A stretch of DNA of 64,000 nt from Chitinophagaceae bacterium. Its GTDB lineage: Bacteria; Bacteroidota; Bacteroidia; Chitinophagales; Chitinophagaceae. Shown one piece after another: positions 1,892 through 62,251 of this stretch. The first letter of the stretch is position 1. Every line of letters starts with the position of its first letter. The notes beneath the pieces were generated by a model. That model did no database searches and was not told the origin of the DNA. It was given only the letters and a program-made list of their open reading frames with translations. Location: NCBI GenBank assembly GCA_031424835.1, contig JANPIE010000025.1, positions 10,423 to 74,422 on the forward strand, read 5' to 3'. Made by a program: the position numbers and the translations under genes.

Positions 1892-1988
1892 GTTTGGTGT
1901 TTGGTGTTTGGAGTTTGGAGTTGTTTTTGGTTTAGTTAGTACCTTTGTATTCTGATAACGCCAAACTCCAATCAACAAACCCCAAACC
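1892..1988. repeat. Inverted pair of heptamer arrays: (GTTTGGW)x4 ... (MCAAWCH)x4
   Basis: GTTTGGT GTTTGGT GTTTGGA GTTTGGA at 1892-1919; CCAAACT CCAATCA ACAAACC CCAAACC at 1961-1988. Confidence 0.85.
1940..1947 (+). promoter_or_regulatory. Bacteroidota sigma-A -7 box (TACCTTTG) for the kdnA-like gene
   Basis: Exact TAnnTTTG match with TTTG about 22 nt upstream. Confidence 0.65.
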
Positions 1989-1995
1989 GTCTCCC

Positions 1996-3213
1996 ATGCC
2001 TGGTTATGAATTTTTTGGTGATGAAGAACGAAAAGAAGTAAATGATGTGCTCGAAAGCGGCATATTGATGCGTTATGGTTTTGATGGTGCACGTAAGGGG
2101 CATTGGAAAGCCAAAGAACTGGAACAGGCAATTACCGGGGTTTTTGGCTGCAAATATGCCCAACTTACATCAAGTGGTACTGCCGCGCTTACTACCGCAA
2201 TGGCGGCATTGGGTATTGGTGCAGGTGATGAGGTGATCATGCCCTCTTTTACATTCGTGGCAAGTTTTGAAGCGGTATTGAGCGTGGGTGCCATTCCTGT
2301 GCTGGTGGATATTGACGAAACACTTACACTAAACCCGGCTTCTGTCCGCTCTGCCATAACACCCCGCACTAAATGTGTGATGCCGGTTCATATGTGTGGT
2401 AGCCCGGCAGATCTTGACGCGCTGCAGCATATCTGCCGCGAACACAACCTTATTTTACTTGAAGATGCTTGCCAAAGTATAGGCGCAAAATACAAAGGCA
2501 AAATGCTGGGGACGATCGGGGATGCCGGCACCTTTTCTTTTGATTTTGTAAAAACGATCACGTGTGCTGAAGGCGGAGTGGTGATGACAAACAGGGAAGA
2601 TGTGTACACCAAATCAGATGGATATACAGATCACGGCCATGACCATGCGGGTATTGACCGTGGTGCAGATCTGCATCCGTTCATCGGGTATAATTACCGA
2701 ATCAGTGAACTGCATGCCGCTGTGGGCCTGGCGCAGATCCGGAAGCTGGATACTTTTCTTTCTATTCAGAAAAAAAACTGCGCAGCACTGAAAAACCACC
2801 TGTCAAAAGTTCCTGAGATCAGTTTCCGTGTATTACCTGAAGGTGGCGAAGACAGTTGTACTTTTCTTTCATGGTTTCTTCCGTCAGAAGAAATTACGCA
2901 GGCAGTAGTAGCCGAGTTGAAAGTGCAGGGAATAATGGCCGGAAGCTTCTACTGGTTTATCAATAACTGGCACTACATCAGCAAATGGGAGCACCTTAAA
3001 AACGCGCACACCTTACATAGTATCCATCCGGAGCAAAAAGCTGCATTACTGAAACTTGCGAATGCAACGTTTGCTGCCAGTGATGCAGTAATGAGTCGCT
3101 GCATATCTACAGCCATCAGCTTATCATGGACAGAAGAGCAGTTGACAGACAAAGCAGAGAAAATGGTTTCTGTTATACAAAAAGTTTTACAACAACAATT
3201 GCAGCGGGCATAA
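1996..3213 (+). CDS. kdnA: DegT/DnrJ/EryC1/StrS PLP aminotransferase, KdnA-like (8-amino-3,8-dideoxy-manno-octulosonate transaminase)
   Basis: Family motifs SSGTAAL, DEVIMPSFTFVAS, LLEDACQ and SFDFVKTITCAEGG (PLP Lys). MPGYEFFG start, DHGHDH, NYRISE and FYWFINNWHY resemble Shewanella KdnA as I recall it (not aligned). Start moved to ATG 1996. Confidence 0.8.
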   Translation: MPGYEFFGDEERKEVNDVLESGILMRYGFDGARKGHWKAKELEQAITGVFGCKYAQLTSSGTAALTTAMAALGIGAGDEVIMPSFTFVASFEAVLSVGAIPVLVDIDETLTLNPASVRSAITPRTKCVMPVHMCGSPADLDALQHICREHNLILLEDACQSIGAKYKGKMLGTIGDAGTFSFDFVKTITCAEGGVVMTNREDVYTKSDGYTDHGHDHAGIDRGADLHPFIGYNYRISELHAAVGLAQIRKLDTFLSIQKKNCAALKNHLSKVPEISFRVLPEGGEDSCTFLSWFLPSEEITQAVVAELKVQGIMAGSFYWFINNWHYISKWEHLKNAHTLHSIHPEQKAALLKLANATFAASDAVMSRCISTAISLSWTEEQLTDKAEKMVSVIQKVLQQQLQRA

Positions 3214-3216
3214 AAG

Positions 3217-3693
3217 ATGTCGAGGTTTCCTGTATACAGGCATGCGCGCAATAAGCAGCGGGAGATAACTTACGCGTGGTTACTTATCGTGTTTGCAGTT
3301 ATCATACTAATTGCCGGCACATTTTTTATGAACTGGCCATGGAAAAGCCTTAGCCCGGTTGTGTTTTTTATTTTCATTTTATGGACGGGTGTCGATAAGT
3401 TGCGGAATACTCGTCGAGAATATTTTTTTGAGGTAACACCGCTTACACTTGAGTGGTTATTGGATGAGGGCGCTGCGCGCGTACAAATACCGTGGGAGGA
3501 TATCCGCTGGATAAAGAAAGAAAGTAACGGAAGTATCAGTTTTTTCCAGGATAGCAGTTTCAACAAAAACATATTGCTGAATATGTATGCGAAAGAGGAA
3601 AGAACCCGCATTGAAAAAGAAATAGAAGAAATGGCAAATGCCAGGCAGATAAAGCTGCTTAATTTTTCTTCGCCGGTTTCGGAGCTTGCTTAA
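3217..3693 (+). CDS. Hypothetical membrane protein (2 TM plus soluble C-terminal domain)
   Basis: 158-aa ORF 3 nt after the aminotransferase stop; two N-terminal hydrophobic segments. Confidence 0.7.
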   Translation: MSRFPVYRHARNKQREITYAWLLIVFAVIILIAGTFFMNWPWKSLSPVVFFIFILWTGVDKLRNTRREYFFEVTPLTLEWLLDEGAARVQIPWEDIRWIKKESNGSISFFQDSSFNKNILLNMYAKEERTRIEKEIEEMANARQIKLLNFSSPVSELA

Positions 3694-3964
3694 AATCCAT
3701 TCCTTTTCCTTCCAGCCTGTCTACATAATCCAGACCACCCAGCCGAATTCTGAACGGTATTTTGGTGATCTTTTCGATCTGCCATTCTTTTTTACAAAAA
3801 AACGGAAGTGAGTTCACATAATAGTTTTCGGGCATCAGGCGCACCGGCAATCCCCTGAGGCTGTCAATCTGCGACAGGTTCAAACCGCGTAAGGGCCTGA
3901 GCTGCTGCGCGCTGGCCAGTACGGCAATTAGCAATAAATTCACAAACAAACAAATCGGTTTCAC
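3659..3964 (-). CDS. Small secreted hypothetical protein
   Basis: GTG start, signal-peptide-like MKPICLFVNLLLIAVLASAQQ, motif PFFCKKEWQIEK...PFRIRLGGLDYVDRLEGK. Fills the gap upstream of rpoN. Confidence 0.6.
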   Translation of the reverse strand: MKPICLFVNLLLIAVLASAQQLRPLRGLNLSQIDSLRGLPVRLMPENYYVNSLPFFCKKEWQIEKITKIPFRIRLGGLDYVDRLEGKGMDFKQAPKPAKKN

Positions 3965-4062
3965 CGTTGGGATGCTTTCTTTTGTATGTAAATTTACGGT
4001 TTAAACAAAGAAGGGTTTGAACTGGTACGGTTTTTTTGTACTGACCGTACCTCCTATTGGAT

Positions 4063-5553: not shown

Positions 5554-5592
5554 AATTTTGAATATTGAGCAGGGAATGATGAATATAGAAGG
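5554..5592 (+). repeat. Single-arm heptamer array (AATWTYG/AGCAGGG family) directly after the rpoN stop
   Basis: TAG|AATTTTG AATATTG AGCAGGG AATGATG AATATAG AAGG. Confidence 0.65.
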
Positions 5593-5641
5593 AGGGTCGT
5601 TTAAGCATAAAGCCACCATAAACCAGAAACCATTGCAAAGC

Positions 5642-7333: not shown

Positions 7334-7334
7334 T

Positions 7335-35673: not shown

Positions 35674-35715
35674 CGTCAAACGTGAATCGTGCGGTGTGAA
35701 TGGTGAATAGTTGAT
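35674..35715 (+). repeat. Single-arm heptamer array (NGTGAAT), about 6 units
   Basis: CGTCAAA CGTGAAT CGTGCGG TGTGAAT GGTGAAT AGTTGAT. Confidence 0.65.
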
Positions 35716-36786: not shown

Positions 36787-36887
36787 CGTCAGTCGTGAGT
36801 GGTCAGTTGTGAGACGTCGGTCGTGAGTGGGATTTATACTCACGATTCACGTCTCACGATTGACGTCTTACGATTGACGTCTTCCCA
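36787..36887. repeat. Inverted pair of heptamer arrays (CGTGAGW / CTCACGW family), 6 + 7 units, 10-nt loop
   Basis: CGTCAGT CGTGAGT GGTCAGT TGTGAGA CGTCGGT CGTGAGT -GGGATTTATA- CTCACGA TTCACGT CTCACGA TTGACGT CTTACGA TTGACGT CTTCCCA. Confidence 0.88.
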
Positions 36888-43292: not shown

Positions 43293-43323
43293 AGATTGCT
43301 TGCTGACCCAAGTTAATTATTAA

Positions 43324-43391
43324 GTACGAAATACGCGGTACGAAGTACGAAGAGAAGATCAGTTGTACCTCGTACTTCGTAGCTCGTACTT
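43324..43391. repeat. Inverted pair of heptamer arrays (GTACGAA / CGTACTT), 4 + 4 units
   Basis: GTACGAA ATACGCG GTACGAA GTACGAA -GAGAAGATCAGT- TGTACCT CGTACTT CGTAGCT CGTACTT. Confidence 0.85.
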
Positions 43392-44718: not shown

Positions 44719-44719
44719 T

Positions 44720-45130
44720 ATGAAAAAGATAATTGGTTACCTGTTAGTATTGGTGTTTTTCATTTCTGCCGCGGGTTTTGCGCAGGATGAAAAAATGCAG
44801 CCCGCACGTAAATTACAGGGTTTAAAAATAGCCTATGTTACACGGCAGTTGAATCTCTCAGGCGAAGAAGCAGAAAAATTCTGGCCCGTTTACAATACCT
44901 ATGTGGCAGAAATTAGAAAAGCCCGGCAGGAAAAGAAAGATGATGTTCTGCTTCAGGAGGAAGAGGTGTTGAATATCCGCAAAAAATACCGCGGTGATTT
45001 TAAGAAAATACTGAATACGGATGACCGTGTTTACAAAGTGCTTACCCTTGAAAGGGATTTCAACAACCTGCTTCGCAAAGAATTACAGCATCGCATGCAA
45101 ATGCGCAAAGGAAAAGACCGGAAGCCTTAA
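44720..45130 (+). CDS. Secreted all-helical protein, Spy/CpxP-like; third gene of the ECF operon
   Basis: Signal peptide MKKIIGYLLVLVFFISAAGFAQ; LNLSGEEAEKFWPVYN; highly charged helices. Start ATG 44720. Confidence 0.75.
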   Translation: MKKIIGYLLVLVFFISAAGFAQDEKMQPARKLQGLKIAYVTRQLNLSGEEAEKFWPVYNTYVAEIRKARQEKKDDVLLQEEEVLNIRKKYRGDFKKILNTDDRVYKVLTLERDFNNLLRKELQHRMQMRKGKDRKP

Positions 45131-45873: not shown

Positions 45874-45881
45874 TTTCAATC

Positions 45882-46011
45882 GGGGATTGCAGATTTTTGG
45901 AAGCAGAACAAATGTACGCAGCGATCGGTTGTATCAGATATTGATTGAGCTGCTGTCAGAAACGCAAAGTAAACACTCAATCCAAAATCTGCCATCAAAA
46001 ATCTCCCATCA
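45882..46011. repeat. Inverted heptamer/14-mer arms (GCAGATTTTTGGA / TCCAAAATCTGC) about 80 nt apart
   Basis: Right arm TCCAAAA TCTGCCA TCAAAAA TCTCCCA TCA (rodA stop); left arm GGGATTGCAGATTTTTGGA. Confidence 0.65.
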
Positions 46012-47349
46012 CCTTAGCACCATCTGCCTGTCTGCATCCAGTCTTAATAAAATAAAAATCAACATCGTAAACGTAAGCAGGGATGATCCGCCGTAGCTGA
46101 TCAGGGGCAGCGGGATACCTACAATAGGAAACAGTCCTATCGTCATACTGACATTAACCGCGATATGAAAGAAAAGAATACTGGCTACCGAATAAGCGTA
46201 TACGCGGCTGAAAGTACTTCGTTGCCGTTCTGCTATCCTTACGATCCGGTAGAGTAAGGCAAGGTATATCACCAGAAAAATAAAACAGCCTGCTAACCCG
46301 AATGCCTCACCCAGCGATGTAAAAATAAAATCAGTGTGTTGTTCCGGTACATATTTACCCCGGGTTTGTGTGCCTTTCAGGAAACCTTTTCCAGTCAAAC
46401 CTCCCGATCCAATTGCTATCATGCTTTGGCGTACATTATAATCATCTGGTTTCCGGGCAGCTTTCTCGCCAGATTTTCTTTCTGATTTTTTGTTTTTGCC
46501 GCAGTCGTATTCTTTACCCACCATACTGTAGATACGCGTACTCTGGTAGCATTCCAGTACATTATTGAAAATATAGGGTACTACAAATCGCTGTACGCCA
46601 ACTCCCACCAGCCAGAGTGCCACTACCAGTGTGAGTAAACGTCTGCTACGCTTGGCCGTTCGGCGGATGATGAAAAAGATGATGGCGGCAATAACGGTTA
46701 ATGAAATGGCCAGCGTATTGGGCTCAATCAGCAGGGTGGCAATTACGAGAATGGCGAAAGATGAGCCATAGATCAATATTTGCGCAGGTAACCCTTCGCG
46801 GTACATGGCAAGCAGGAAGGCGGAGTACACCAGTGCCAGCCCCAGCTCATGCTGCGCAATGGATAAAACGGCGGGTGCCGCAATAATCAGCACCGCTATC
46901 AGCTGGGAACGCGGCCTGCTGAATTCTGTTTCCTGCCGGGAGAGAAATTTTGCCAAAGCCAGCGCCGTAAAAATTTTACAAAGTTCCGCCGGCTGCAGGT
47001 TAAACCCTCCACCCAGTGGAATCCAGCTTTTTGAACCATTGATGTTGCGTCCCAGCACAAAAGTGGCCAGCATTAACAATATGCCGAAAGCATATAGCAG
47101 GTTGGCGAGTGCGGTAAAGAGTTTGCTATCCGTTAGCAGAATAAATGTGGCGATAACGGTACAGAAAATGGCAAAAATCAGTTGCTTGCTATAGTTGGTT
47201 TTACCGCTGATAAAGGAAGAGAGTAGGTTGGTCTCCGGTCGGTATTCAACCATGTAAATGCAGAGCACACCAATGCCCACCAGTATTGCATACAGCCAGA
47301 TAATGGCCCAGTCAACTCCGGGCGCTATGCTATTGTTATCATTGTTCAT
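46009..47349 (-). CDS. rodA: Rod shape-determining protein RodA (SEDS)
   Basis: GSKSWI.LG..FNLQPAELCK, YNVRQSMIAIGSGG..GKG, PEQHTDFIF and PLPLISYGGSS. Confidence 0.97.
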   Translation of the reverse strand: MNNDNNSIAPGVDWAIIWLYAILVGIGVLCIYMVEYRPETNLLSSFISGKTNYSKQLIFAIFCTVIATFILLTDSKLFTALANLLYAFGILLMLATFVLGRNINGSKSWIPLGGGFNLQPAELCKIFTALALAKFLSRQETEFSRPRSQLIAVLIIAAPAVLSIAQHELGLALVYSAFLLAMYREGLPAQILIYGSSFAILVIATLLIEPNTLAISLTVIAAIIFFIIRRTAKRSRRLLTLVVALWLVGVGVQRFVVPYIFNNVLECYQSTRIYSMVGKEYDCGKNKKSERKSGEKAARKPDDYNVRQSMIAIGSGGLTGKGFLKGTQTRGKYVPEQHTDFIFTSLGEAFGLAGCFIFLVIYLALLYRIVRIAERQRSTFSRVYAYSVASILFFHIAVNVSMTIGLFPIVGIPLPLISYGGSSLLTFTMLIFILLRLDADRQMVLR

Positions 47350-49466
47350 CTTGCCACTGCTGTTTTTTTGGTTTTCCGTTCCTCTATAATTAATGCAGCA
47401 GTTGCCTGCGTAGGTTTGGTTTTGGATGCCGGCTTTTTATTTACCGGTGGTGGCGGTGCATACCGCTGTTCATCGCCCGGTTGGATGGTTTCTTCTGCGG
47501 TGGAATCGGCTTCTTCATTTTTCTCTCTTTTTTGTTCAAGCAGTCGCTCGTTATCCCTGATCCGTTTCAGCGAATCTTTTTTGGCCATTGCAATGCGCAT
47601 CACTGGGGGGATATATACTTTGTTTGCATATTCTTCTATCCAGGCCTGTCTTTCCTTGCCCCTGATAGAATCTTTCAGGTATTTCTCTACAAGTAAACTG
47701 GCAATAGGAGCGGCAACGCGTGCGCCCTGGTCAGAGTTTTCGCAAATAACCGCAATCGCAATACGTGGGTTATCACGTGGTGCAAAAGCGCCAAAAAAAG
47801 AATGGTCGGGTTGTTTTTTGGCAACTCCGTTTATGTTCGCATAGTTCTCCACTGTTCCCGTTTTTCCGCACATCACGATATCGGAAATTTTAGAGCGAAC
47901 GGCGGTACCATATTCCACCACCGCCTGCATACCCGTTTGTACAGCATTAAAAATGGAATCCGGAATACGCCGGTCAGTATAGTGTTTTACCCTGTAGGGT
48001 GCAAGCAAACCGTATTCATCGCCGCCTTCAATGGAATCAACCAGGTGGGGCGTATAGTACCATCCCTTGTTGGCAATGATGGCCATTACATTGGCAAGCT
48101 GTACGAGCGTTGTATTTACTTTACCCTGGCCTATGGCATTTGAAATAAGGTTGCATGAAAAAAGTTTTGGTCCGAATTCTTTACGGTAATTAGCGCCCAA
48201 TGGTATCAGCCCTCTTTTTTCTGAGGGAAGATCTACGCCTAATTTGTCACCCATACCAAAGGAAGATGCATATTCTTTAAACGCCGACAATGCACTGTCT
48301 GTATTCGGAAATTTTCTTTGCTCCAGAAACCGTTTGTACACCGTTGAAAAATACGAGTTGTCGCTATGCGCAACCGCATCCGTAAATCGGAACACACCTA
48401 TATCCAGACATTTGGGTTTACCCGTTCCGCAACCCGTGAAATAACCCGGGCAGGAAACCGTGGTTCGCTGATCAATTACACCCTCTGTTAAACCAATGAT
48501 GCCTACAACAGTTTTGAATGTGGAACCCGGTGAATAATACGTACCCAGTCCGCGGTTATTCAATGGCAAACGGGGATCCAGTATCAGGTCTGCAAAATGT
48601 CTTTTCTGCTCGCTGCCGGTTAAGTAATTGGGATCATAGGTGGGTGCGCTAACCATGCAGAGTATACCGCCTGTTCTCGGGTCAATCGCAACAATGCTCC
48701 CTACCTTATTGCTCATCAGTTTTTCGCCCAGTTTCTGCAGCTCCACGTCAAGACTCAGGTGCATGTTCTTACCGGCAACAGGCGTGGTATCATACAATCC
48801 ATTCTCGTATGCTCCCTGTATGCGGCTCTTGTTATCGCGTATATAATTTTTCACACCGCGTTGTCCCATCAGCACTTTCTCATACCGTGCCTCCAGACCT
48901 GTCATTCCCGCATAATCACCCATCTGGTATCCTTCATCCCGGTGTTTTTTAAGGTAGTTGGTATCTACCTCACGGATATAACCCAGTACATGACCGGCGG
49001 CGCTGTAAGGATAGGTTCGTACAGAACGTTCGATAAGTGTGAAGCCCGGGAAACGATAAATATTTTCATTGAGCCTTGCAAATGTTTCCACGGTAAGCAA
49101 AGGTTCAAAGATGCTGGGTTTCACATAACCGTTCTTGAAGATGAGGTCACGCATTCTTTTTTTGTACTCCGCCGTATCAATATTCAGTAACCTGCAAAGC
49201 GCAAACGTATCCACCCCCCTGCTTTCGGAAGGCGTTACCTGCAGGTCATAACTGATCGTATTTTCAAGAATGGCTCTTCGTTTCCGGTCGAAGATGATAC
49301 CCCTGTCCGGGTAAATCACTTTTCTAACAATGGCATTGTTATCGGCCGCAAGTTTGTACTTGGCAGAAAACACCTGCAGGTTGATCAACTGCCCGGTGAT
49401 CACCAAAAAAACAACAGCAAAAATAATTTGTATAATGCGTCCCCTGCTTTGATTGAATACCGGCAT
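47346..49466 (-). CDS. mrdA: Penicillin-binding protein 2
   Basis: YPDRGIIFDR, PGSTFK (SxxK), SDN (SxN) and KTGT (KTG); lies in the mre operon. Confidence 0.96.
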   Translation of the reverse strand: MPVFNQSRGRIIQIIFAVVFLVITGQLINLQVFSAKYKLAADNNAIVRKVIYPDRGIIFDRKRRAILENTISYDLQVTPSESRGVDTFALCRLLNIDTAEYKKRMRDLIFKNGYVKPSIFEPLLTVETFARLNENIYRFPGFTLIERSVRTYPYSAAGHVLGYIREVDTNYLKKHRDEGYQMGDYAGMTGLEARYEKVLMGQRGVKNYIRDNKSRIQGAYENGLYDTTPVAGKNMHLSLDVELQKLGEKLMSNKVGSIVAIDPRTGGILCMVSAPTYDPNYLTGSEQKRHFADLILDPRLPLNNRGLGTYYSPGSTFKTVVGIIGLTEGVIDQRTTVSCPGYFTGCGTGKPKCLDIGVFRFTDAVAHSDNSYFSTVYKRFLEQRKFPNTDSALSAFKEYASSFGMGDKLGVDLPSEKRGLIPLGANYRKEFGPKLFSCNLISNAIGQGKVNTTLVQLANVMAIIANKGWYYTPHLVDSIEGGDEYGLLAPYRVKHYTDRRIPDSIFNAVQTGMQAVVEYGTAVRSKISDIVMCGKTGTVENYANINGVAKKQPDHSFFGAFAPRDNPRIAIAVICENSDQGARVAAPIASLLVEKYLKDSIRGKERQAWIEEYANKVYIPPVMRIAMAKKDSLKRIRDNERLLEQKREKNEEADSTAEETIQPGDEQRYAPPPPVNKKPASKTKPTQATAALIIEERKTKKTAVAR

Positions 49467-49555
49467 ACCTTATTGTGAGATAAAAATGAATAGTGTGAAG
49501 AATTGTTTCAAAGTTCCTGAATTAGCGGGGTTTGGGTAAATCTTTTTTGTGGTTG

Positions 49556-49609
49556 GTTCATAGTCCATAATCCATGGTCGATAGTCCATGTTCCATTGAC
49601 TATGGACTA
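49556..49609. repeat. Heptamer array (TAGTCCA family) with a short inverted arm, between mreD and mrdA
   Basis: GTTCATA GTCCATA ATCCATG GTCGATA GTCCATG TTCCATT then GACTATGGACTA. Confidence 0.75.
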
Positions 49610-49666
49610 CAGCTGCAAGTTTTGGTGGGGGTGTTATTTGCCGGGGTTCATGGGTTCCGGCAAACG

Positions 49667-50200
49667 CTAAGCGGCATTGGTCCTGTGCCTTCCCTTCCTG
49701 CTGAACAGGAGTTCGGTAATGAATATCAGTAACAGGCTTATGGCTGTGGTGCCCAAAACCTTGCCGATAAAGAACATAAAATTACCAAACTGGAGCCATT
49801 CTATCAGTACAAGGTAAAAATGATGCAGGAAACTGAGCACTCCCGCATACAAGCCGTAGGGTGCCCATCCCATGTTTTTGGGGCTTGGCTCCATATAGCT
49901 TTGCTCGGTGGTTTCCTGCGGTATCAGCAGGTTAAGCAGGAAAGGCCGTACATAAGCAATGAGTACACAGGGCGCTGCATGGAGTCCGGGGGTGCCCGTA
50001 AAAAAATCCAGCGAAAGCCCAAAAAGGAAACTGATGATAAGCAGGAAAAAGCGGTTGATTGAAAACGGCAGCCAGAGTATGTACAGGAAATACAGGTAGG
50101 GTACAATGAACTGGTGCAGCGGCGGCACCTCATCCAGGATAAATACCTGGAAAAGGATAAACAGGATGAAACGGATAATATTTTTCAGCAGCGTGCTCAT
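49667..50200 (-). CDS. mreD: Rod shape-determining protein MreD
   Basis: Multi-TM; GLSLDFF..TPGLHAA; 4-nt overlap with mreC. Confidence 0.92.
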   Translation of the reverse strand: MSTLLKNIIRFILFILFQVFILDEVPPLHQFIVPYLYFLYILWLPFSINRFFLLIISFLFGLSLDFFTGTPGLHAAPCVLIAYVRPFLLNLLIPQETTEQSYMEPSPKNMGWAPYGLYAGVLSFLHHFYLVLIEWLQFGNFMFFIGKVLGTTAISLLLIFITELLFSRKGRHRTNAA

Positions 50201-51048
50201 GGTGTTTTGGGTGGATTGGTTTCTAACTGCACCTGCTCCGCATACAGCACATTCTTAATGAGGTATACATACTGCACATTGAAAAAATTGGTAGCGGTTT
50301 TGATTTTCAGTGTATAGAAATTGCTCTGCGTTTCGGACGAAATATTGGCTACTGTTCCTATCAAAAGGTGAGAAGGGAAATTAGCCGAATAAGTGCTGGT
50401 GAGTACCGAATCTCCCTTTGTTACTTTAGCGCCCTTGGTTACGTTTCGCAAGATCAGGTAAGTTGGGTCTACACCATCCCATTCCACACTGCCCGTACTG
50501 TTATCTTTTTTAAGCATCGCGCTTACTTTGCTGTTGCGGTGTAACAGGCTCATAACGCGGCTGAAATTGGCACTGGTTTCTACTACCACGCCTACAATTC
50601 CTTCCGGACCGGTAACGGCCATTCCCTTTTCCACCCCCTGTGCGCTTCCTCTTTCCAGTGTAAGAAAATTAGCCTGAAGGGTATAGGTGTTGCCGATAAC
50701 TTTTGCGGGCAGATAGGTAAATTTCCGCAATCGACCGGTGCTGTCTGATACCAGCGTATCGGTAACAATTTTCTGCGAAGTATCCGGAGCCTGGAAATTG
50801 GTGATAAGCATATTGCGCAACCGCGCATTCTCCATTGCCAGTTGGCGGTTGGTTTCTTTCAAACCAAAATAACCGCGCAGGCCGTTGTATTGCAGGTTTA
50901 CATTACCCGTGAGCTCATTTACAGTGGAAGAAAAAAAAGCCTCATGCGTTTTGCTCGCATTGCTCAGCAGGATAATGGCCAGTACCTGTAACAGCAGGAA
51001 GCTGAGAAAGGTAAAATACCTGCGGATGAAAAGGAATATGTTTTTCAA
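50197..51048 (-). CDS. mreC: Rod shape-determining protein MreC
   Basis: TTG start; N-terminal TM and coiled coil; GVEKGMAV..PEGIVGVV and GDSVLTS..S..FP..L.IG. Confidence 0.95.
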   Translation of the reverse strand: MKNIFLFIRRYFTFLSFLLLQVLAIILLSNASKTHEAFFSSTVNELTGNVNLQYNGLRGYFGLKETNRQLAMENARLRNMLITNFQAPDTSQKIVTDTLVSDSTGRLRKFTYLPAKVIGNTYTLQANFLTLERGSAQGVEKGMAVTGPEGIVGVVVETSANFSRVMSLLHRNSKVSAMLKKDNSTGSVEWDGVDPTYLILRNVTKGAKVTKGDSVLTSTYSANFPSHLLIGTVANISSETQSNFYTLKIKTATNFFNVQYVYLIKNVLYAEQVQLETNPPKTP

Positions 51049-51055
51049 GGTTCAA

Positions 51056-51130
51056 GCTGTTAGCTGTTAGTCCTTAGCCGTTAGCAACAATAGATTCTGG
51101 CTTGTAGCTAATGGCTAACAGCTAACAGCT
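51056..51130. repeat. Inverted pair of heptamer arrays (GCTGTTA / CAGCTAA) between mreB and mreC
   Basis: GCTGTTA GCTGTTA GTCCTTA GCCGTTA -21 nt- TAGCTAA TGGCTAA CAGCTAA CAGCT. Confidence 0.85.
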
Positions 51131-51135
51131 TTTTG

Positions 51136-52161
51136 TTATCTCATAATAAATGGAAAGCGCTGGTAATTCTTAAGGGCCAGGCCGGTACCACGCACCACGC
51201 TTTTCAGTGGGTCATCAGCTACATGAACCGGCAATTTAATTTTAGCGCTCAAACGTTTGTCAAGCCCACGTAACAGGGCACCACCGCCTGTGAGGTATAG
51301 GCCCCTGCGGTAAATATCCGCTGCCAGTTCAGGAGGCGTTGTTTCGAGTGCCTTGAGAATGGCTTCTTCTATTTTGAAAATGCTTTTGTCAAGCGCTTCA
51401 GCAATTTCCTGGTAGCTTACCATAATCTGTTTGGGAATACCCGTTACCAGGTCACGCCCGTTAACCGGAAGGTCGTCGGGTGGATTATCAAGGTCCTTCA
51501 TGGCAGCGCCTACATTGATCTTGATCTGCTCTGCGGTACGCTCACCAATTAACAAACTATGGTAACGGCGAAGAGCTTCCATGATATCAGCGGTAAACTC
51601 ATCACCCGCGATACGGATACTCTGGTCACATACGATACCGGCCAGTGCAATCACGGTAATGCCCGTGGTTCCGCCACCAATATCAATGATCATGTTTCCC
51701 ACCGGCTCTTCCACATCAATGCCTATACCCAGAGCCGCGGCCATGGGCTCATGTATCATATATACTTCTTTGGCTCCCGCCTGTTCTGCACTGTCGCGAA
51801 CCGCACGTTTTTCTACCTCGGTAATGGAGGAAGGAATACAAATTACCATCCGCCAGCTTGGAGGAAACAGGGGTTTTTTGGGATAGATCATTTTAATCAG
51901 CTCCCTGATCATCAGCTCAGCTGCGTTAAAATCAGCGATCACACCATCTTTCAATGGGCGCACGGTGCGGATACTTTCATGGGTTTTCTCGTGCATCATC
52001 AACGCCTTCTTCCCCACGGCGAGTACCTCTTTCATATTGTTCCTGTTAAGGGCAATGATGGAGGGTTCATTTACTACTACTTCGTCGTTATGTATGATAA
52101 GGGTGTTTGCGGTACCCAGGTCCATCGCAATCTCCTGCGTAAAAAAGTTAAATAAGCCCAT
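51136..52161 (-). CDS. mreB: Rod shape-determining protein MreB
   Basis: MDLGTANTLI, RPLKDGVIADF, EPMAAALG, IDIGGGTT and LTGGGALL. Confidence 0.99.
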   Translation of the reverse strand: MGLFNFFTQEIAMDLGTANTLIIHNDEVVVNEPSIIALNRNNMKEVLAVGKKALMMHEKTHESIRTVRPLKDGVIADFNAAELMIRELIKMIYPKKPLFPPSWRMVICIPSSITEVEKRAVRDSAEQAGAKEVYMIHEPMAAALGIGIDVEEPVGNMIIDIGGGTTGITVIALAGIVCDQSIRIAGDEFTADIMEALRRYHSLLIGERTAEQIKINVGAAMKDLDNPPDDLPVNGRDLVTGIPKQIMVSYQEIAEALDKSIFKIEEAILKALETTPPELAADIYRRGLYLTGGGALLRGLDKRLSAKIKLPVHVADDPLKSVVRGTGLALKNYQRFPFIMR

Positions 52162-52200
52162 CGTATATTAAAAAAGTTACAAATGTGTAATGTATGCCTG

Positions 52201-52208
52201 CAAAGGTG
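52201..52208 (-). promoter_or_regulatory. Bacteroidota -7-like box (CACCTTTG) for the mreB operon
   Basis: One mismatch to TAnnTTTG, followed by CA, 40 nt upstream of the ATG. Confidence 0.55.
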
Positions 52209-52284
52209 ACTGAAATTAGTTGAATAAACAAAGCCAAAGTACTGATTTTTCAAGGTTTTTGGGGCGTTGGGCGCCAATCCGAAG

Positions 52285-52347
52285 CGTGAGACGTGAGACG
52301 TGAATCGTGAGTAGAGAATCATATCTCACCACTACCTTCTCAGTTCA
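52285..52347. repeat. Inverted heptamer arrays (CGTGAGA family) between the purD stop and the mreB promoter
   Basis: CGTGAGA CGTGAGA CGTGAAT CGTGAGT ... TCTCACC ACTACCT TCTCAGT TCA (purD stop). Confidence 0.78.
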
Positions 52348-53628
52348 CCTGAACTCATACCCAATATCCCTCCGGTAATACATGCCTTCAAACGATATTT
52401 GCTCCAGCAGTTGTTTTGACCGGTCCACGGCTTCTGTAAGGGTATCTCCGAAAGAGGTAACCGCCAGCACCCGGCCGCCATTTGTGACCACTTCATCGTC
52501 CACTTCCTGTGTGCCGGCATGAAAAACCAGCGACCCATTCCCGGGTTCCAGTGCTGTTAATCCGCTGATGAGGAAATTTTTCCGGTATTCTCCGGGATAA
52601 CCACCACTCACTGCTACCACCGTTGCACAGCTTCTTTCATCGAATACTATATTAGTATCAACTAATGTGCCATTATCCATCGCGGCAAATAATGCTACAA
52701 GATCTGTCTGGAGCCGGGGCATCACCACTTCTGTTTCGGGATCGCCCATCCTGCAGTTATATTCAATTACCCAGGGCTCACCATTCATGTTCATCAACCC
52801 AAAAAAGATAAATCCATGGTATTCGAGATTTTCAGTGGATAGGCCATTTACCGTTGGTTTAATGATCCGCTCCTCTACTTTATGCATAAAGCTATCATCC
52901 ATAAAAGGTACCGGGCTTACACAACCCATACCTCCTGTATTCAGTCCCGTATCTCCTTCGCCAATCCTTTTGTAGTCTTTTGCATGACCGATAACCTGGT
53001 AGCTACTTCCATCCGTCAATACAAAAACACTCACCTCTATTCCCTGGAGGAACTCTTCAATTACCACTTTTCTGCTTGCCTCACCAAACTGTTTATGAAT
53101 GATCATCCCTTCAAATACTTCCAGAGCTTCCGCGTGCGTATGCACAATCACTACGCCTTTACCCGCGGCAAGTCCGTCTGCTTTCAGCACAACGGGAAGT
53201 GAATGTTCATTAATATATTTCCGGCCTTCCTCAAAACTGTCAGCAGTAAACTCTGCATAACCAGCGGTGGGTATATGGTGCCGTTGCATAAATTGTTTGC
53301 TGAATGCCTTGCTGCCTTCCAGTTGCGCAGCTTTTGCAGAAGGCGCCACTACAACTATGTGCTGGAGTTCGGGATCCTGTTTAAAAAAATCATAGATGCC
53401 TTTTACGAGCGGTTCCTCCGGGCCTACTACCAGCATGCGTACCCCAAATTGCAGGCAGGCTTTTTTTATGGCCATAAAATCTGTAGGTGCAATGGCCAGG
53501 TTGGTACCGAACTGTGCTGTTCCCGCATTGCCCGGTGCGATATACAAATCATCGCAATGGTGGCTCTGTACCATTTTCCATGCCAATGCATGTTCGCGAC
53601 CGCCAGATCCAAGTAGTAAAATATTCAT
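52345..53628 (-). CDS. purD: Phosphoribosylamine--glycine ligase
   Basis: MNILLLGSGGREHALAW, LEGSKAFSK, VLKADGLAAGKGV, QDYKR-like DYKRIGEGDTGLNTGGMG, EYNCRMGDPET and TNGGRVL. Start ATG 53628; TACTTTCG box at 53663-53670. Confidence 0.99.
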   Translation of the reverse strand: MNILLLGSGGREHALAWKMVQSHHCDDLYIAPGNAGTAQFGTNLAIAPTDFMAIKKACLQFGVRMLVVGPEEPLVKGIYDFFKQDPELQHIVVVAPSAKAAQLEGSKAFSKQFMQRHHIPTAGYAEFTADSFEEGRKYINEHSLPVVLKADGLAAGKGVVIVHTHAEALEVFEGMIIHKQFGEASRKVVIEEFLQGIEVSVFVLTDGSSYQVIGHAKDYKRIGEGDTGLNTGGMGCVSPVPFMDDSFMHKVEERIIKPTVNGLSTENLEYHGFIFFGLMNMNGEPWVIEYNCRMGDPETEVVMPRLQTDLVALFAAMDNGTLVDTNIVFDERSCATVVAVSGGYPGEYRKNFLISGLTALEPGNGSLVFHAGTQEVDDEVVTNGGRVLAVTSFGDTLTEAVDRSKQLLEQISFEGMYYRRDIGYEFR

Positions 53629-53862
53629 GGTAAGACAGCAACTGGTTTGGTTGATAATGTGACGAAAGTACGAATGCATTTCAACTGCCCGTAAGGAAAA
53701 TAGCACTTGTTTGTGTCCGTGGCAGTTTGCTGCCGCGCAGCACTCCTAAAACCGATATTTTATGCGGCTATCGGATTTGGCAAATCTGATATCATATCTA
53801 AACTGTATCGCCAGAGGTTTTGGTCATAATGCATACGATCCTTAATATCGCAGGCGGAAAGC

Positions 53863-53876
53863 GGCAACATGTTGCC
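53863..53876. promoter_or_regulatory. Perfect 14-bp palindrome GGCAACATGTTGCC, candidate operator
   Basis: Seen directly; a related GGCA-N6-TGCC occurs at 53721-53734. Confidence 0.35.
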
Positions 53877-54088
53877 ACAGAGGTAAACCACCCCATTTGG
53901 GTGTTATATGTGATAAGGTTAACTGTTAAATAATGGAAAACCGGCGGGCAACACCTGAAAATAACGCATCTTGGAAAATGCGCTTTGATGGAAGCGTAGC
54001 TGGGAGGAATGCTGCAGTTTATTTGGTGTGGACAAAGAGAAATCAACATTTATTATGAGGTTTGACGAAAAAATCATGATTTGATTTT

Positions 54089-54718
54089 ATGAGGATAATT
54101 ATCGCGGATGACCACACGATCGTGAGGGCGGGTATAAAAAAACTGCTGAAGGACGCTTTTCCTTTTGCGGAACTACTGGAAGCGTCCAATACGGTTGAGC
54201 TGCTTTCCCTCGTACGCGAAAGTGTATGCGACGTGGTAGTGTCAGATATAACCATGCCCCCCGGCGACTCCGGATTGGAAGCGGTGAAAGAGATCAAATC
54301 GATATCGCCACAAACTTCAGTGGTCATAATGAGTATGCATTCGGCGGAGCATTATGCTGTCAGGGCTTTCAAGTCGGGCGCCACGGGCTATCTCTCAAAA
54401 GATGCGGCAGCCATGGAACTGGTTAAAGCCGTTAACACGGTACTGGCCGGCAAAAGGTACGTTAATGAAGAAGTGGCGGCACTGCTGGAGGATTCAGCAG
54501 GATCCGGCTATGAAACCCGTTCGATAGATAACCTCTCGGACCGCGAGCTGGAAGTACTCAAGCTTCTCGGCCGCGGCAAAACCATTGCCGAGATCGCCGG
54601 GGAGTTGTCATTAAGCACCCATACCATCAGCACTTTCCGCGCAAAGATCCTGGAGAAAATGAATTTCCATAACAATATGGAGCTGATCAGGTTTGCAGTG
54701 GATAATAAGCTTACGTGA
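54089..54718 (+). CDS. NarL/FixJ-family response regulator (REC plus LuxR HTH), orphan
   Basis: IIIADDH, VVSDITMP (phospho-Asp), GATGYLSKD, and LSDRELEVLKLLGRGKT..EIA..LSLS.HT.ST.R. Confidence 0.96.
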   Translation: MRIIIADDHTIVRAGIKKLLKDAFPFAELLEASNTVELLSLVRESVCDVVVSDITMPPGDSGLEAVKEIKSISPQTSVVIMSMHSAEHYAVRAFKSGATGYLSKDAAAMELVKAVNTVLAGKRYVNEEVAALLEDSAGSGYETRSIDNLSDRELEVLKLLGRGKTIAEIAGELSLSTHTISTFRAKILEKMNFHNNMELIRFAVDNKLT

Positions 54719-54901
54719 GAAGTGAGAAGTGAGACGTGAGTCGTGAGGCGTCAAACGTGAGACGATTGTAGATCATATTCTCTATCCAAATTTGTTATCA
54801 GATTTTCACTTTTCACGTCTCACGCCTCACGTCTCATGCCTCACGTCTCACCTCTCACGTCTCACCTCTCACGTCTCACGCCTCACGTCTCACGTCTCAC
54901 G
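54714..54901. repeat. Large inverted pair of heptamer arrays: 7 x NGTGAGA, 41-nt spacer, 14 x YCTCACG
   Basis: Left arm 54714-54762 and right arm 54804-54901. The outermost unit of each arm contains the TGA stop of the flanking convergent gene. Confidence 0.95.
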
Positions 54902-56333
54902 CCTCCTCCTCTCCAACATACCTTCTCTCCGGCAGGCTTTTCGCTACCAACATAAACAATACTATAAAGACCGAAAGGATTGCCAGGAACAGCCAGTAAT
55001 ATTTGGCGCCGGTGAACTGGCTGAAGAAGCCTTTGTTTACGATACTGTTATTTACTACACTTACCAGCAGATTACCCATTGAAATACCCAGGAGATATAA
55101 TGCGCTCATGGTACTCTTCATTGATTTTGGCGCATGGGTATAAGCATATTCCAGGCAGGTTACCGAAACGAGTATCTCCGAAGATGCAAGCAGTATATAG
55201 GCCAGTACCTGCCACCATACAGAAGGTTTGCCACCTGCATCCACCCTTTCCTGCAATAAAGCGATGATGACAAAACACAGACCGATCACCACCAGGCCGG
55301 CTCCGATCTTGCGTAATGGGGTAATCTTCAACCCCCGCTTTTCAAGGAAGGGGAATAATCCATAGGTAAAAACAGGGATCAGGATGATCAGGAACAGCGG
55401 GTTGATAAAATTGACCTGCTCAGGCAATATTTTAAAATCTCCCACCAGCGTAAGATCCAGGCGTGTAGCCTGCAATACCCACTCAGAAAGGTTTTGATCC
55501 CATAATGCCCAGAAGATCGGTGTGAAGGCGAATACGGCCAATACCCTGTAAACCGCTTTGATACCATCGATCGATTTGGCAGAATATTTTTCCGCAACAG
55601 CCTCCCAAACTTTTTGTCCGGGTTTGCGGCTGAATAATTTCAGCAGGGCATACGTCGAAATCGTAAAGAAATTTTCCCGGTTGATTCCCGCAGGAGGCAC
55701 TCGCTTATATTTTTTTCTTCCCAGCCAGAAGGTGATGGTAGCCAGGGCCATCAATATTCCAGGTACGCCAAAAGCCACACCCGGACCGAAGTTTTTCATC
55801 AGTACTGGAATGAATAAAGGTGCTAAAGTACCACCCAGGTTGATGCTCATATAAAACCACCCATATACTTTTGAGAGCAGGTGTTCATTGGATTTATCGA
55901 ACTGGTCTCCCACATTTGCGGATACGCATGATTTTATTCCACCAGCGCAGCAGGCGATTACGATAAGTCCGAGGCTGAAAAGCCTATAGTTGCTTTCCGA
56001 CACAGATAAAATAAAATGACCCAGGGTATACACAATAGAAACAAACAGGATCACCCGGTATTTACCAAAAAACCAGTCAGCCATAATGGCTCCAACCAGT
56101 GGCATGAAATAGGCCAGCGTAACAAACAGGTGCGACATTTCATTGGCACGGGCATCCGCTTCAGCGGTAAGGGAAGGGTTGAGAGCAGGATTGAAAAAAG
56201 CGACCGCCATATAGGTAACCATGATGGACCGTAGGCCGTAAAAACTAAATCTTTCTGCTATCTCGTTCACAATGATAAAAGGGATCGCCCGCGGCATACC
56301 GGTTTTCTTAACCTCGCTCTGTATTTCGGCCAT
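54897..56333 (-). CDS. POT/PTR2 family proton-coupled oligopeptide MFS transporter
   Basis: EIAERFSFYG (ExxER motif), GAIMADWFFGKY, GGIKSCVSANVGDQF and FYMSINLG. Confidence 0.95.
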   Translation of the reverse strand: MAEIQSEVKKTGMPRAIPFIIVNEIAERFSFYGLRSIMVTYMAVAFFNPALNPSLTAEADARANEMSHLFVTLAYFMPLVGAIMADWFFGKYRVILFVSIVYTLGHFILSVSESNYRLFSLGLIVIACCAGGIKSCVSANVGDQFDKSNEHLLSKVYGWFYMSINLGGTLAPLFIPVLMKNFGPGVAFGVPGILMALATITFWLGRKKYKRVPPAGINRENFFTISTYALLKLFSRKPGQKVWEAVAEKYSAKSIDGIKAVYRVLAVFAFTPIFWALWDQNLSEWVLQATRLDLTLVGDFKILPEQVNFINPLFLIILIPVFTYGLFPFLEKRGLKITPLRKIGAGLVVIGLCFVIIALLQERVDAGGKPSVWWQVLAYILLASSEILVSVTCLEYAYTHAPKSMKSTMSALYLLGISMGNLLVSVVNNSIVNKGFFSQFTGAKYYWLFLAILSVFIVLFMLVAKSLPERRYVGEEEA

Positions 56334-60701: not shown

Positions 60702-60770
60702 AATGTGGCATTATGCCTTTGCGAAAATGTTGAACGCAGAGTTGCTGATGCGCAATGAAAAACAGAGTAT

Positions 60771-62030
60771 ATGATAAATCGCAGGGCATTTATGAAATCA
60801 GGCGCTATGGCGCTTTTTGCTGCAGGTTTTGGTGGCGTGCCAACTTTTATTGCGCGTGCCGCAGATAGCCGTAAGATCGTGGGTCCCTACAAGAAAAACA
60901 AAACGCTGGTATGTATTTTCCAGCGTGGGGCAATGGATGGACTGATGGCGGTAAGTCCATACACCGACCCAAACCTGAAAACACTGCGACCTACACTCTA
61001 TATGAGTCCGGCACAGAACGAAGGAAAGTTGATTGATCTGGATGGCCGGTTCGGTTTACATCCTTCCCTGCAATCCTTCGCACCCTTTTTTACCGAAGGG
61101 CGCATGGCCATTGTGCATGGTGTAGGCAGCCCAAACAATACCCGAAGTCATTTTGATGCGCAGGATTATATGGAGAGTGGAACACCCTTCAGCAAAAGTA
61201 CCCCCAGCGGCTGGCTTAATCGTGCGGTGGGTTTAATGGGACATGATGCAACGCCTTTCCGCGCTGTCAGTCTCACGAGTGCTATGCCCAGGAGTTTGTA
61301 TGGCGATAATGAATCACTCGCTATTAATAACCTGCAGGAGTTTGCCATCCAGATGCGCGGCAACCCTATGGCTTCCAATCTGGCTTCCAGGTCTTTTGAA
61401 CAGTTATACGACCAAACTTCCAGCGAAATTCTTAACCGTACGGGGAAGGAAAGTTTTGATGCGCTGAAGATGCTCAATGTAAACAACATCAAAAACTACC
61501 AGCCTGCAAACGGCGTGGTGTACCCCGCCTCGCCATTGGGTAATTCTTTGAAACAGATTGCGGTGCTTATAAAAATGAATATTGGTGTGGAAGTGGCTTT
61601 TGCGGAAAGTGGTGGATGGGATACGCATTTCAACCAGGGGGCAGCCAATGGCGCACTCGCCCGTAACCTGAGAGATTTTAGTGAAAGCATTGCGGCATTC
61701 TGGAAAGATATGGATGCGCACCAGGATGATGTTACGGTAATGACCATGACCGAATTTGGCCGCACCGCCCACCAGAACGGCACCGGTGGAACAGATCATG
61801 GACGTGCCAGTTGCCTGTTTGTTTTGGGAAATGATGTGCAGGGTGGAAAAGTATACAACAATATCAAAACGCTTTCGCGCCAGGATCTGGAAGACGGCCG
61901 TGACCTTCCTGTAACAACCGATTTCCGCGCTGTATTCAGCGCAGTTGCCAACGGGCATTTAAAGATCAACAACAACCAGAAACTATTTCCTCAATGGGAT
62001 GGTAAGAGTTTGTCAATAATGAAGGCATAA
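60771..62030 (+). CDS. DUF1501 family protein with Tat signal
   Basis: NRRAFMK Tat motif; IFQRGAMDGL, RSHFDAQDYMESG, GGWDTH, MTEFGRT and GTDHG. Confidence 0.95.
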   Translation: MINRRAFMKSGAMALFAAGFGGVPTFIARAADSRKIVGPYKKNKTLVCIFQRGAMDGLMAVSPYTDPNLKTLRPTLYMSPAQNEGKLIDLDGRFGLHPSLQSFAPFFTEGRMAIVHGVGSPNNTRSHFDAQDYMESGTPFSKSTPSGWLNRAVGLMGHDATPFRAVSLTSAMPRSLYGDNESLAINNLQEFAIQMRGNPMASNLASRSFEQLYDQTSSEILNRTGKESFDALKMLNVNNIKNYQPANGVVYPASPLGNSLKQIAVLIKMNIGVEVAFAESGGWDTHFNQGAANGALARNLRDFSESIAAFWKDMDAHQDDVTVMTMTEFGRTAHQNGTGGTDHGRASCLFVLGNDVQGGKVYNNIKTLSRQDLEDGRDLPVTTDFRAVFSAVANGHLKINNNQKLFPQWDGKSLSIMKA

Positions 62031-62042
62031 CTCTCCGTGACA

Positions 62043-62159
62043 TTCTGTGTCCTCTGTGGCTCTGTAGTGAAGCCTTCGCTTCGAATGATATTGAACGTTC
62101 AATAAAGAATAATTTTTCCTTCACCACAGATTCACAGAGGGCACAGAATACCACAGAGG
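62043..62159. repeat. About 106-bp symmetric element: 29-bp imperfect nonamer-type arms (CTCTGTG / CACAGAG) around a 16-bp perfect palindrome
   Basis: Arms at 62043-62071 and 62120-62148, 25 of 29 complementary; TATTGAACGTTCAATA at 62089-62104. Confidence 0.8.
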
Positions 62160-62166
62160 TTTTCGA

Positions 62167-62251
62167 TCCTTGCTCATCTGTTCCTTGTTCCCTGCTCCTC
62201 TGTTCCCCTGCCCTTCAGCATTCAAAATTCATTGTTCGATATTCGATATTA
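62167..62251 (-). repeat. Heptamer array (AATATCG/AATTTTG plus AGCAGGG/AACAAGG family) starting at the TonB receptor stop
   Basis: Minus strand T-AATATCG AATATCG AACAATG AATTTTG AATGCTG AAGG...AGCAGGG AACAAGG...; same family as 5554-5592. Confidence 0.72.

Follow-up and report, generated by a model that had tools for sequence, protein, structure and literature searches.

Why should the spacers between core genes of a bacterium carry, again and again, head-to-tail runs of 7-nt words? The question is raised by a 64,000-nt stretch of a Chitinophagaceae genome (hereafter the window; C25:10423-74422 in an assembly of 3.63 Mb and 189 contigs with 46% G+C, only 95% complete), in which an earlier note had listed 11 array-bearing sites, described all of them as palindromic and proposed that they are gene-less sites of a mobile cassette. 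Our analysis points to an answer, to which we give about an even chance: the arrays are gene-less members of a class of heptamer-armed cassettes, similar to the intervening sequences (IVSs) of 23S rRNA, in which the word of the arms is matched to a protein of family PF05635. The elements share one architecture and one polarity, enclose PF05635 genes, co-occur with these genes across relatives, co-vary in word with the enclosed protein and turn over between species; their presence is lineage-specific, in spacers that are short otherwise, and a stop codon usually lies no more than ~7 nt away.

Short tandemly repeated repetitive (STRR) sequences have served in typing for decades without an explanation. 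An excess of heptamers was reported by Mrazek et al. in 2007, with polymerase slippage proposed as its source according to the account given in PMC4679880; tandem heptamers have been ranked first in abundance among the intergenic repeats of prokaryotes, and "no clear clue" was seen to what they do (PMC6344855); and in Xanthomonas the word GGGAATC forms 70-75 close pairs that are 'always' convergent (PMC4692102). The IVS of Coxiella 23S rRNA has a 28-bp terminal stem and an S23p (PF05635) open reading frame (ORF), and its 5' stem holds two or three tandem GACAGAT heptamers, in strain-variable number, with RNase III cutting at the first (PMC4990558). We found no literature linking dispersed heptamer arrays to PF05635 genes, most subscription journals lying outside the search.

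Results

Heptamer arrays are in excess throughout the genome

Across the genome, Tandem Repeats Finder (TRF) reported 839 period-7 rows vs. 92 in a third-order Markov shuffle, an excess of ~9-fold, together with 243 rows of period 14 and 84 rows of period 21; at TRF scores of at least 50, the whole genome contains 201 rows of period 7, 21 of period 8, and 9 of period 9. Merging the rows gave 857 arrays (30.7 kb in total, 231 canonical units), 71-83% of which are intergenic, i.e. within the 11% of the DNA outside a crude ORF map. Head-to-tail 7-nt units exceeding other periods and a mainly intergenic position are also the features that define the STRR and the heptamer long simple sequence repeats (LSSRs). 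In the sample of G022 (L089-L100), the nearest species (G000 is the genome under study and the other G numbers are relatives), period-8 arrays are also in excess, at 4.3 rows per 100 kb vs. 1.4 in G000 (score ≥40); these may be heptamer arrays bearing indels, or a genuine second period.

The arms are inverted and have a fixed polarity

The arrays are strongly biased toward inverted pairs: same-word neighbours no more than 300 nt apart are inverted in 133 cases and direct in 12 (p = 6e-27), compared with 2.9% of inverted same-word pairs among randomly drawn array pairs; and 56% of the arrays (score ≥40) have a reverse-complement partner within 200 nt, vs. 6% for a scrambled unit. The two statistics by which the earlier note could have been refuted, period-7 enrichment and paired-arm bias, thus both speak for its observation. 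The left arm contains more G than C in 120 of 125 informative pairs (120:5), and a wider partner search gave a G-rich left arm 275 times vs. 12. As a palindrome is identical on both strands, every element reads 5'-(G-rich words)-loop-(C-rich words)-3' on either strand; the reverse layout, C-rich arm first, is almost never seen. Simple neutral slippage is hard to reconcile with these observations, as neither the excess of inverted pairs (133:12) nor the polarity (120:5) is expected from slippage alone.

Wherever two arms exist they share a single word, as the earlier note had stated. Its description of the families as unrelated in sequence needs revision, since all share the G-rich-first polarity; GT is present in 36 of the 47 distinct 5'-arm units vs. 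~43% expected from arm composition (p = 3e-6, for units that are mutually related and not independent); and the words GTGAGAC, GTGAGAA, GTGAAAA and GTCAAAA are intermixed within single arrays as one continuum. A GT core was nevertheless dropped as a class-wide feature, because the arm words ACGATTT and AAATATT of other phyla lack GT.

The commonest word of the genome is GTACGAA (59 arrays). Its 18 paired elements have a common build, with 4-5 units per arm and usually two perfect units beside the loop, and their loops, as a rule 8-24 nt long (64 nt in one case), are unrelated among copies in both sequence and length; no target-site duplication is evident at the edges of these 18 copies, which in these respects do not resemble a miniature inverted-repeat transposable element (MITE). 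Over all pairs, the arms have a median length of 4.4 units (range 3 to 33). The complementarity of an arm to its own partner (0.68) hardly differs from that to same-word partners at other loci (0.66); arms fit foreign partners about equally well, an indication that what is preserved is the word and not the pairing. Locus-specific co-evolution of arms was thus not seen, and mirrored variants, spotted by eye in certain copies, are no general feature.

Two further loci are recorded here. CGTGAGA elements at C123:17355-17660 and C179:9116-9400 are ~97% identical over ~80 nt of the inner left arm and the entire loop, with different outer flanks; they represent either a recent inter-locus copy or one locus split over contig ends by the assembler. 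At C44:1179-1661, inverted GTTGAAT-type arrays enclose an open frame composed of at least five tandem repeats of 51 nt (repeated peptide RGNRSAEKIQERAACPD), which is probably a non-coding minisatellite and no gene.

PF05635 genes are enclosed by the arms

All eight PF05635 genes and all three PF13366 (GxxExxY) genes of the genome lie between inverted single-word arrays, with the G-rich arm on the left and a word of its own at each locus. Eight of these 11 genes fall among the 42 of 2885 genes that have complementary flanks; conservatively using 7, a Fisher test gives p = 3e-11. Among relatives, ~22-24 of 30 PF05635 loci (17 genera of the same order) lie between such arms, and the left arm has at least as many G as C in all strong cases. 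The GxxExxY loci of relatives have 7-nt words spaced ~10-11 nt apart and mixed polarity (4 vs. 4); this wider spacing and mixed polarity set their arms apart as a related but separate subclass. The earlier proposal of a cassette bearing four-helix-bundle or GxxExxY genes is therefore consistent with the enclosed genes of the genome itself, and with the accB-accC locus described below, with the GxxExxY arms of relatives as a separate group.

The arm words of these resident genes are matched exactly by 35% of the arrays (score ≥40), where uniform chance would give ~1.7% by a rough estimate; size-biased insertion into existing arrays would raise the match of cargo words as well. The closest solved structure to the GTACGAA-armed PF05635 protein (C54:12313-12729) is 2RLD, an entry with five chains. 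Another of the PF05635 genes, at C53:321-671, has GTGAAAA arms.

Several other candidates for cargo were rejected. The housekeeping genes among those with complementary flanks (rpsM, rplN, rpsI, purE, atpF and that of the M23 peptidase) each lie between two separate elements of one word. DUF559 genes, which the earlier note named as bracketed by similar arrays, are represented by a single gene (C122:2530-3260) that has on each side a direct copy of an unrelated, ~55-nt hairpin-containing repeat (CCCCTCTCTACNTGTAGAGAGGGGTGACGAGCGYAGCGAAGTCGGGGTG), a third repeat family. The link to reverse transcriptase genes that it had asked about is not supported either, there being no PF00078 gene in the genome. 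Two Y1 transposase genes (PF01797, IS200/RAYT-like; RAYT, REP-associated tyrosine transposase; REP, repetitive extragenic palindrome) are present outside the window at C13:17880-18344 and C129:20780-21124. No heptamer arrays flank either of them (C13:17892, C129:20780); the C13 gene is flanked by a different GC-rich hairpin (TGTCCCGTTAGGGACA ... CCCCGTTAGGGG), and this gene with its own hairpins looks like a separate REP/RAYT-type system.

Cassettes also occur in clusters in relatives: G034 has one GxxExxY and two PF05635 genes within 3.5 kb (C1:4044789-4048276), and G039 has a PF05635 gene beside a GxxExxY gene (C6:154927-156824) and two GxxExxY genes 2 kb apart (C4:342171-344426).

The arm word follows the PF05635 protein

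Clear arms were present at 26 PF05635 loci. Within this set, each of the four cross-genome pairs with the greatest protein similarity has one arm word in common: AATTACG is shared across three families of the order, ATGTTGA by G025 and G000, and GTTGACA by G028 and G000. The mean protein score is 76 bits for word-sharing pairs vs. 37 bits for the others, and the genes flanking the word-sharing pairs are unrelated. A search with the GTACGAA-armed protein, restricted to one genome per species, gave 80 loci, 43 of them with strong arms, and TACGA occurs in 19 of these 43. The word drifts with protein identity: AAGTACG is found at 66-71% identity; AAGTTAG or AAATATT at ~50-59% (Flavobacteriaceae); and ACGATTT at 42-51% (Chloroflexota, Acidobacteriota, Verrucomicrobiota and Armatimonadota). 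Around these GTACGAA-type homologues from many phyla, the left arm has more G than C in 41 of 42 cases (41:1). That like proteins carry like words in unrelated contexts and in different phyla is not predicted by slippage.

Array density follows PF05635 gene content across relatives

The co-occurrence with four-helix-bundle genes that the earlier note had asked about was examined in 15 genomes, namely the whole of G000 and samples of 40-230 kb from 14 relatives. The density of PF05635 genes (per Mb) is correlated with that of period-7/14/21 rows (per 100 kb; Spearman 0.75, p = 0.001, kinship ignored; 0.74 with GxxExxY genes added), and the five genomes without PF05635 have 0-2.5 rows per 100 kb vs. 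20.7 in G000. In contrast, the number of Y1 transposase genes is unrelated to array density (rho 0.12): G013 has three Y1 genes and no arrays in its sample. As Y1 genes are found in array-poor genomes and are uncorrelated with array density, a Y1/RAYT transposase was rejected as the driver of the arrays.

Elements turn over between species

Divergence within the genus is deep: even in the nearest species, nucleotide identity to the M23 peptidase gene of the window (35797-36768) is only ~75%. Comparison of orthologous spacers revealed filled sites, empty sites and switches of word, as the earlier note had envisaged. The mreB-mreC palindrome is present only in G000 (AGCTGTT) and G022 (AGCTNCG, with both arms changed), whereas at least 20 other genomes of the genus have spacers of 4-17 nt; single AACAGCTAA / TTAGCTG words in the spacers of relatives make it suggestive that a AACAGCTAA word was the local seed of the AGCTGTT array. 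The mreD-PBP2 spacer of G022 carries a related word with 2 mismatches, and the purD-mreB element is unique to G000 within the genus. Between accB and accC, a PF05635 cassette with GATAATN arms is found in G000 and G022; G017, which has no PF05635 gene, has a gene-less palindrome of another word (AGTTGNT); and ~25 other genomes have a plain spacer of 20-100 nt. By eye, with no alignment computed, the right arm at accB-accC is far better conserved between G000 and G022 than is coding DNA (~75%).

Counted over orthologous spacers between adjacent gene pairs, arrays are distributed as follows:

G000 vs. G022 (n = 81): in both 5, only in G000 7, only in G022 3, in neither 66
G000 vs. G017 (n = 52): in both 1, only in G000 8, only in G017 1, in neither 42
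G000 vs. G018 (n = 44): in both 1, only in G000 10, only in G018 1, in neither 32

The arrays shared by G000 and G022 exceed chance (Fisher p = 0.0014). In a 99.86%-identical strain, the mreB-mreC and mreD-PBP2 arrays are identical to those of G000, and in the array at window 54713-54905 the inner right arm has TTTTCAC at least 4 times vs. 2 times, the contig of that strain ending inside the repeat; this was the only other strain found, and look-ups with two other proteins gave no match. Judged from these comparisons, the elements are gained and lost at the species scale and persist for some time, and long arrays change length fast.

Elements of the window

The elements of the window are listed below (fold values are minimum free energies (MFEs) of RNA folds with their z scores); the mre genes, purD, PBP2 and rodA lie on the minus strand.

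1891..1922, single arm, (A/T)GTTTGG x4.6 (TRF score 50) with no reverse-complement partner; fold z +0.55; in a spacer of 58 nt from which a DsbA-like gene and a DegT-type aminotransferase gene diverge
5554..5596, degenerate single arm (GAATTTT GAATATT GAGCAGG GAATGAT GAATATA GAAGGAG) with no partner, beginning directly after the rpoN stop; read by eye, TRF reporting only 5615-5633 (ACCATAA x2.7)
35674..35710, lone G-rich arm with a CGTGAAN/GGTGAAT word, between alaS and the M23 peptidase gene; fold z -0.8
36788..36882, strong palindrome 20 nt past the M23 peptidase stop: left arm 36788-36830 (GTCAGTC GTGAGTG)x3, 7-nt loop, right arm 36838-36882 (CTCACGA TTGACGT)x3; -69.3 kcal/mol, z -10.3
43322..43391, strong GTACGAA palindrome in the divergent spacer between the genes of phosphoenolpyruvate (PEP) carboxylase and an extracytoplasmic function (ECF) sigma factor; -32.6 kcal/mol, z -5.3
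45880..46011, weak, long-looped element after rodA: GGGGATTGCAGATTTTTGG paired with CCAAAATCTGC...ATCAAAAATCTCCC, the right arm alone being a clear array (period 14, x2.3); -34 kcal/mol, z -0.9
49559..49614, moderate TAGTCCA/ATGGACT palindrome between mreD and the PBP2 gene; -21.5 kcal/mol, z -3.0
51055..51130, strong AGCTGTT palindrome occupying the whole mreB-mreC spacer; -39.8 kcal/mol, z -6.1
52285..52349, weak asymmetric element between purD and mreB: CGTGAGA x3.9 (plus strand) vs. a degenerate arm at 52324-52349; -20 kcal/mol, z -1.2
54713..54905, strong and largest in size, taking up the spacer between the convergent genes of a LuxR-type response regulator and a POT transporter: 7 x NGTGAGA, 48-nt loop, 13 x YCTCACG (TRF scores 62 and 137); -81.4 kcal/mol, z -9.6
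62024..62165, strong gene-less palindrome, not listed earlier; -57.9 kcal/mol, z -7.9
62167..62250, two single arms without a hairpin: C-rich TCCTTGY-like x5.4 (62167-62207) and TTCGATA x2.3 (62235-62250); z -0.7

Period-7 arrays are present at all 11 sites of the earlier note, nine of them detected by TRF and those at 5554 and 35674 by eye only. The claim that all 11 are palindromic holds in part: the sites at 36788, 43322, 51055 and 54713 are strong palindromes and that at 49559 is a moderate one, whereas those at 45880 and 52285 are weak, and those at 1891, 5554, 35674 and 62167 are single arms. Its gene calls (purD, mreB, mreC, mreD, PBP2 and rodA; a LuxR-type regulator facing a POT transporter; PEP carboxylase diverging from an ECF sigma factor) are right, and arrays do lie inside the mre operon, at purD-mreB, mreB-mreC and mreD-PBP2 and after rodA.

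Six window sites form long-stem terminal inverted repeats like those of an IVS (MFE -21 to -81 kcal/mol, z -3 to -10). None of the window elements bears a gene, and thus none encloses a PF05635 ORF; all window sites lie between protein-coding genes, and no rRNA or Rfam match was found in the window.

Both arms of the element at 36788..36882 mirror a 14-nt higher-order unit, and this palindrome is not present in the orthologous spacer of G007 or G018. The lone arm at 35674..35710 finds its complement only in the right arm at 36838, on the far side of the M23 peptidase gene (C25 46219-47190). From 35674 to 36882, the conserved M23 peptidase gene thus has two left arms facing one right arm, and arms so placed might pair over long range, across the gene, in alternative ways. 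The degenerate arm at 52324-52349 overlaps the purD stop, the current TGA (52345-52347, minus strand) lying within its outermost unit GGTGAAC, and a relic of the ancestral purD stop context survives downstream of the element. The outermost units of the element at 54713..54905 contain both TGA stops (54716-54718 and 54897-54899), and the TTCGATA arm at 62235-62250 abuts the stop of a TonB-dependent receptor gene. The left part of the palindrome at 62024..62165 is made of CTCYGTG words and its right part of CACAGAG words, at a spacing of 9-11 nt, not 7; this is the same arm type as around the GxxExxY genes of relatives, and the element belongs to that second, GxxExxY-type subclass.

Discussion

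A proposed class of cassettes with a word-reading protein

In the cassette class to which we assign the arrays, an element consists of two inverted runs of a 7-nt word around either a short unique loop (most copies, including all window sites) or a PF05635 gene (8 copies). Each PF05635 protein would be a putative reader of its own heptamer word, with a single word taken up by each subunit or at each binding step, and with strand and orientation fixed; a binding mode common to homologous PF05635 proteins would then give equal polarity across many words. Gene-bearing cassettes could act as the source or helper of gene-less copies, as does a RAYT gene for REPINs (REP-derived hairpins), through a copying route without a recognisable transposase; replication slippage would lengthen and shorten the arrays; and transcribed stems of 20-90 bp, if cut by RNase III as in rRNA IVSs, would make insertion between operon genes tolerable.

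Several observations weigh against this reading. Roughly 40% of the arrays have no detectable partner, and the loops differ between copies, unlike those of a copy-and-paste MITE. About 44% of the arrays (score ≥40) are more than one mismatch away from any resident cargo-arm word (e.g. GGAGTTT, AGCTGTT, CCATAGT; the assembly being 95% complete), and cargo landing in pre-existing hairpins according to their abundance would produce the same match to abundant words. No transposase, reverse transcriptase or other enzyme able to move the elements was identified. The sharing of words by close homologues may reflect common descent of the whole cassette, not recognition by the protein. Finally, G034 and G040 carry six PF05635 genes each but few arrays, and the correlation across relatives comes from only 15 genomes, mostly small samples, and ignores phylogeny.

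A broader proposal is tentative, and we regard it as possible but rather doubtful: PF05635 proteins may be sequence-specific readers of tandem 7-nt words in a transposase-less repeat-protein system analogous to REP/RAYT; this system may be the general cause of the heptamer excess of bacteria (STRR, Xanthomonas GGGAATC); the 7-nt period and the polarity would be its binding footprint; and the rRNA IVS would be a special case that happened to be noticed first.

Alternative explanations

An unlikely alternative is that the arrays are minisatellites arising in situ by slippage that favours 7-nt units, with palindromes formed by template switching, and that the four-helix-bundle and GxxExxY genes are unrelated selfish genes that prefer, or survive in, existing hairpin loops. 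Such an origin would fit the many words (231 canonical units), the highly variable arm length (3 to 33 units) and unequal arms, the difference in unit number between strains at the largest array, the unique loop of each copy, the AACAGCTAA / TTAGCTG words found singly at mreB-mreC in relatives, from which the AGCTGTT array could have grown, and the heptamer excess across many phyla (PMC4679880, PMC6344855). It does not predict, in addition to the bias, polarity and word-protein link considered above, that a few words recur at dozens of loci with a common build; and arrays are almost lacking (0-2.5 rows per 100 kb) in the sister species G017, G013 and G012, which share the replication machinery.

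Quite unlikely, too, is selection by the host for RNA elements (terminators, attenuators, 3'-end stabilisers or processing sites), with the G-rich-first polarity avoiding exposure of a C-rich Rho loading site before the stem closes. The stems are indeed very stable (median -44 kcal/mol, 103 elements); array edges lie at a median of 7 nt from the facing stop codon, 39% of such edges at -10 to +5 nt, vs. a median of 46 nt from a start codon (crude start call); convergent spacers are mildly over-represented (25% vs. a 17% baseline); G-U pairs are slightly more numerous on the sense strand (186 vs. 146, p = 0.03, for pairs that are not independent); and most Xanthomonas heptamer repeats are transcribed (PMC4692102). 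However, T-runs are absent as a rule after the stems, and no terminator-like array was called in 43000-56000; 60% of the element spacers genome-wide are co-directional and 15% (vs. 18%) divergent, the latter containing promoters only; the sense fold is more stable in 31 elements and the antisense fold in 30, so that neither strand asymmetry nor terminator features lend support to the long RNA hairpins that the earlier note had offered as an alternative; arms fit their own partner no better than foreign ones, and hence show no locus-specific compensation; no Rfam family matches the elements of the window; and the arrays are absent at orthologous spacers, 7 of 12 in G022, 8 of 9 in G017 and 10 of 11 in G018.

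Break-healing scars, left when both 3' ends at a double-strand break copy a short G-rich template over and over before they are joined, with a polarity as in telomere addition, would account for the universal polarity, the short unique loops and the whole insertions in otherwise short spacers, but are very improbable, as the genome has no reverse transcriptase gene and a polymerase that might do the copying was not identified, the scheme calls for hundreds of distinct templates, and gene-bearing copies and word-protein co-variation are left unexplained. Slippage, host RNA function and break-healing each cover part of the data, and none covers the link between word and protein.

Significance and relation to known systems

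With PF05635, the long-unexplained heptamer excess of bacteria gains a testable protein partner. If the link is true, it would give a function to a very large protein family of unexplained role, explain the prime-number period and the fixed polarity, place the rRNA IVS within a far larger class whose members colonise operons, essential ones such as mre and acc among them, and provide a set of natural word-specific nucleic-acid binders.

The accessory protein of diversity-generating retroelements, Avd, which binds nucleic acid, also belongs to the PF05635 family. It is, like the proteins here, a small four-helix bundle, and the element on which it acts bears repeats; unlike its setting, there is no reverse transcriptase, template repeat or variable repeat here, and the PF05635 genes stand free inside hairpins.

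REP/REPIN elements with their RAYT (Y1 transposase) resemble the present elements in having many short intergenic palindromes, few gene-bearing copies with the same repeat, family-specific sequence and lineage-specific abundance. They differ in that the cargo here is a four-helix bundle and not a Y1 transposase, and the arms are tandem heptamers in variable number, not a fixed 20-35-nt palindrome; the Y1 genes of this genome, with different flanks and counts uncorrelated with the arrays, are neither flanked by the heptamers nor co-vary with them.

The ORF-bearing 23S rRNA IVSs of Coxiella burnetii and Leptospira have a stem of terminal inverted repeats around a PF05635 ORF, as all PF05635 genes are enclosed here, and the stem region of Coxiella has strain-variable tandem heptamers. 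The present elements, in contrast, are found outside 23S rRNA, in the spacers of mRNAs and between genes that converge or diverge; more than 90% of the copies are gene-less, and this one genome contains hundreds of copies and dozens of words.

The known heptamer repeats (cyanobacterial STRR, Xanthomonas GGGAATC, TAACTGA and the heptamer LSSRs) are intergenic tandem 7-nt units that exceed other periods, as are ours, and the convergent orientation of the Xanthomonas pairs equals the polarity of the present elements; the TAACTGA repeats, unlike these, are direct, not inverted, and lie just upstream of start codons. Reports on such repeats deal with a single word in each genome and point to no partner protein, whereas the present genome has dozens of coexisting words under one polarity rule, tied to PF05635 genes by enclosure, by co-occurrence and by co-variation of word and protein.

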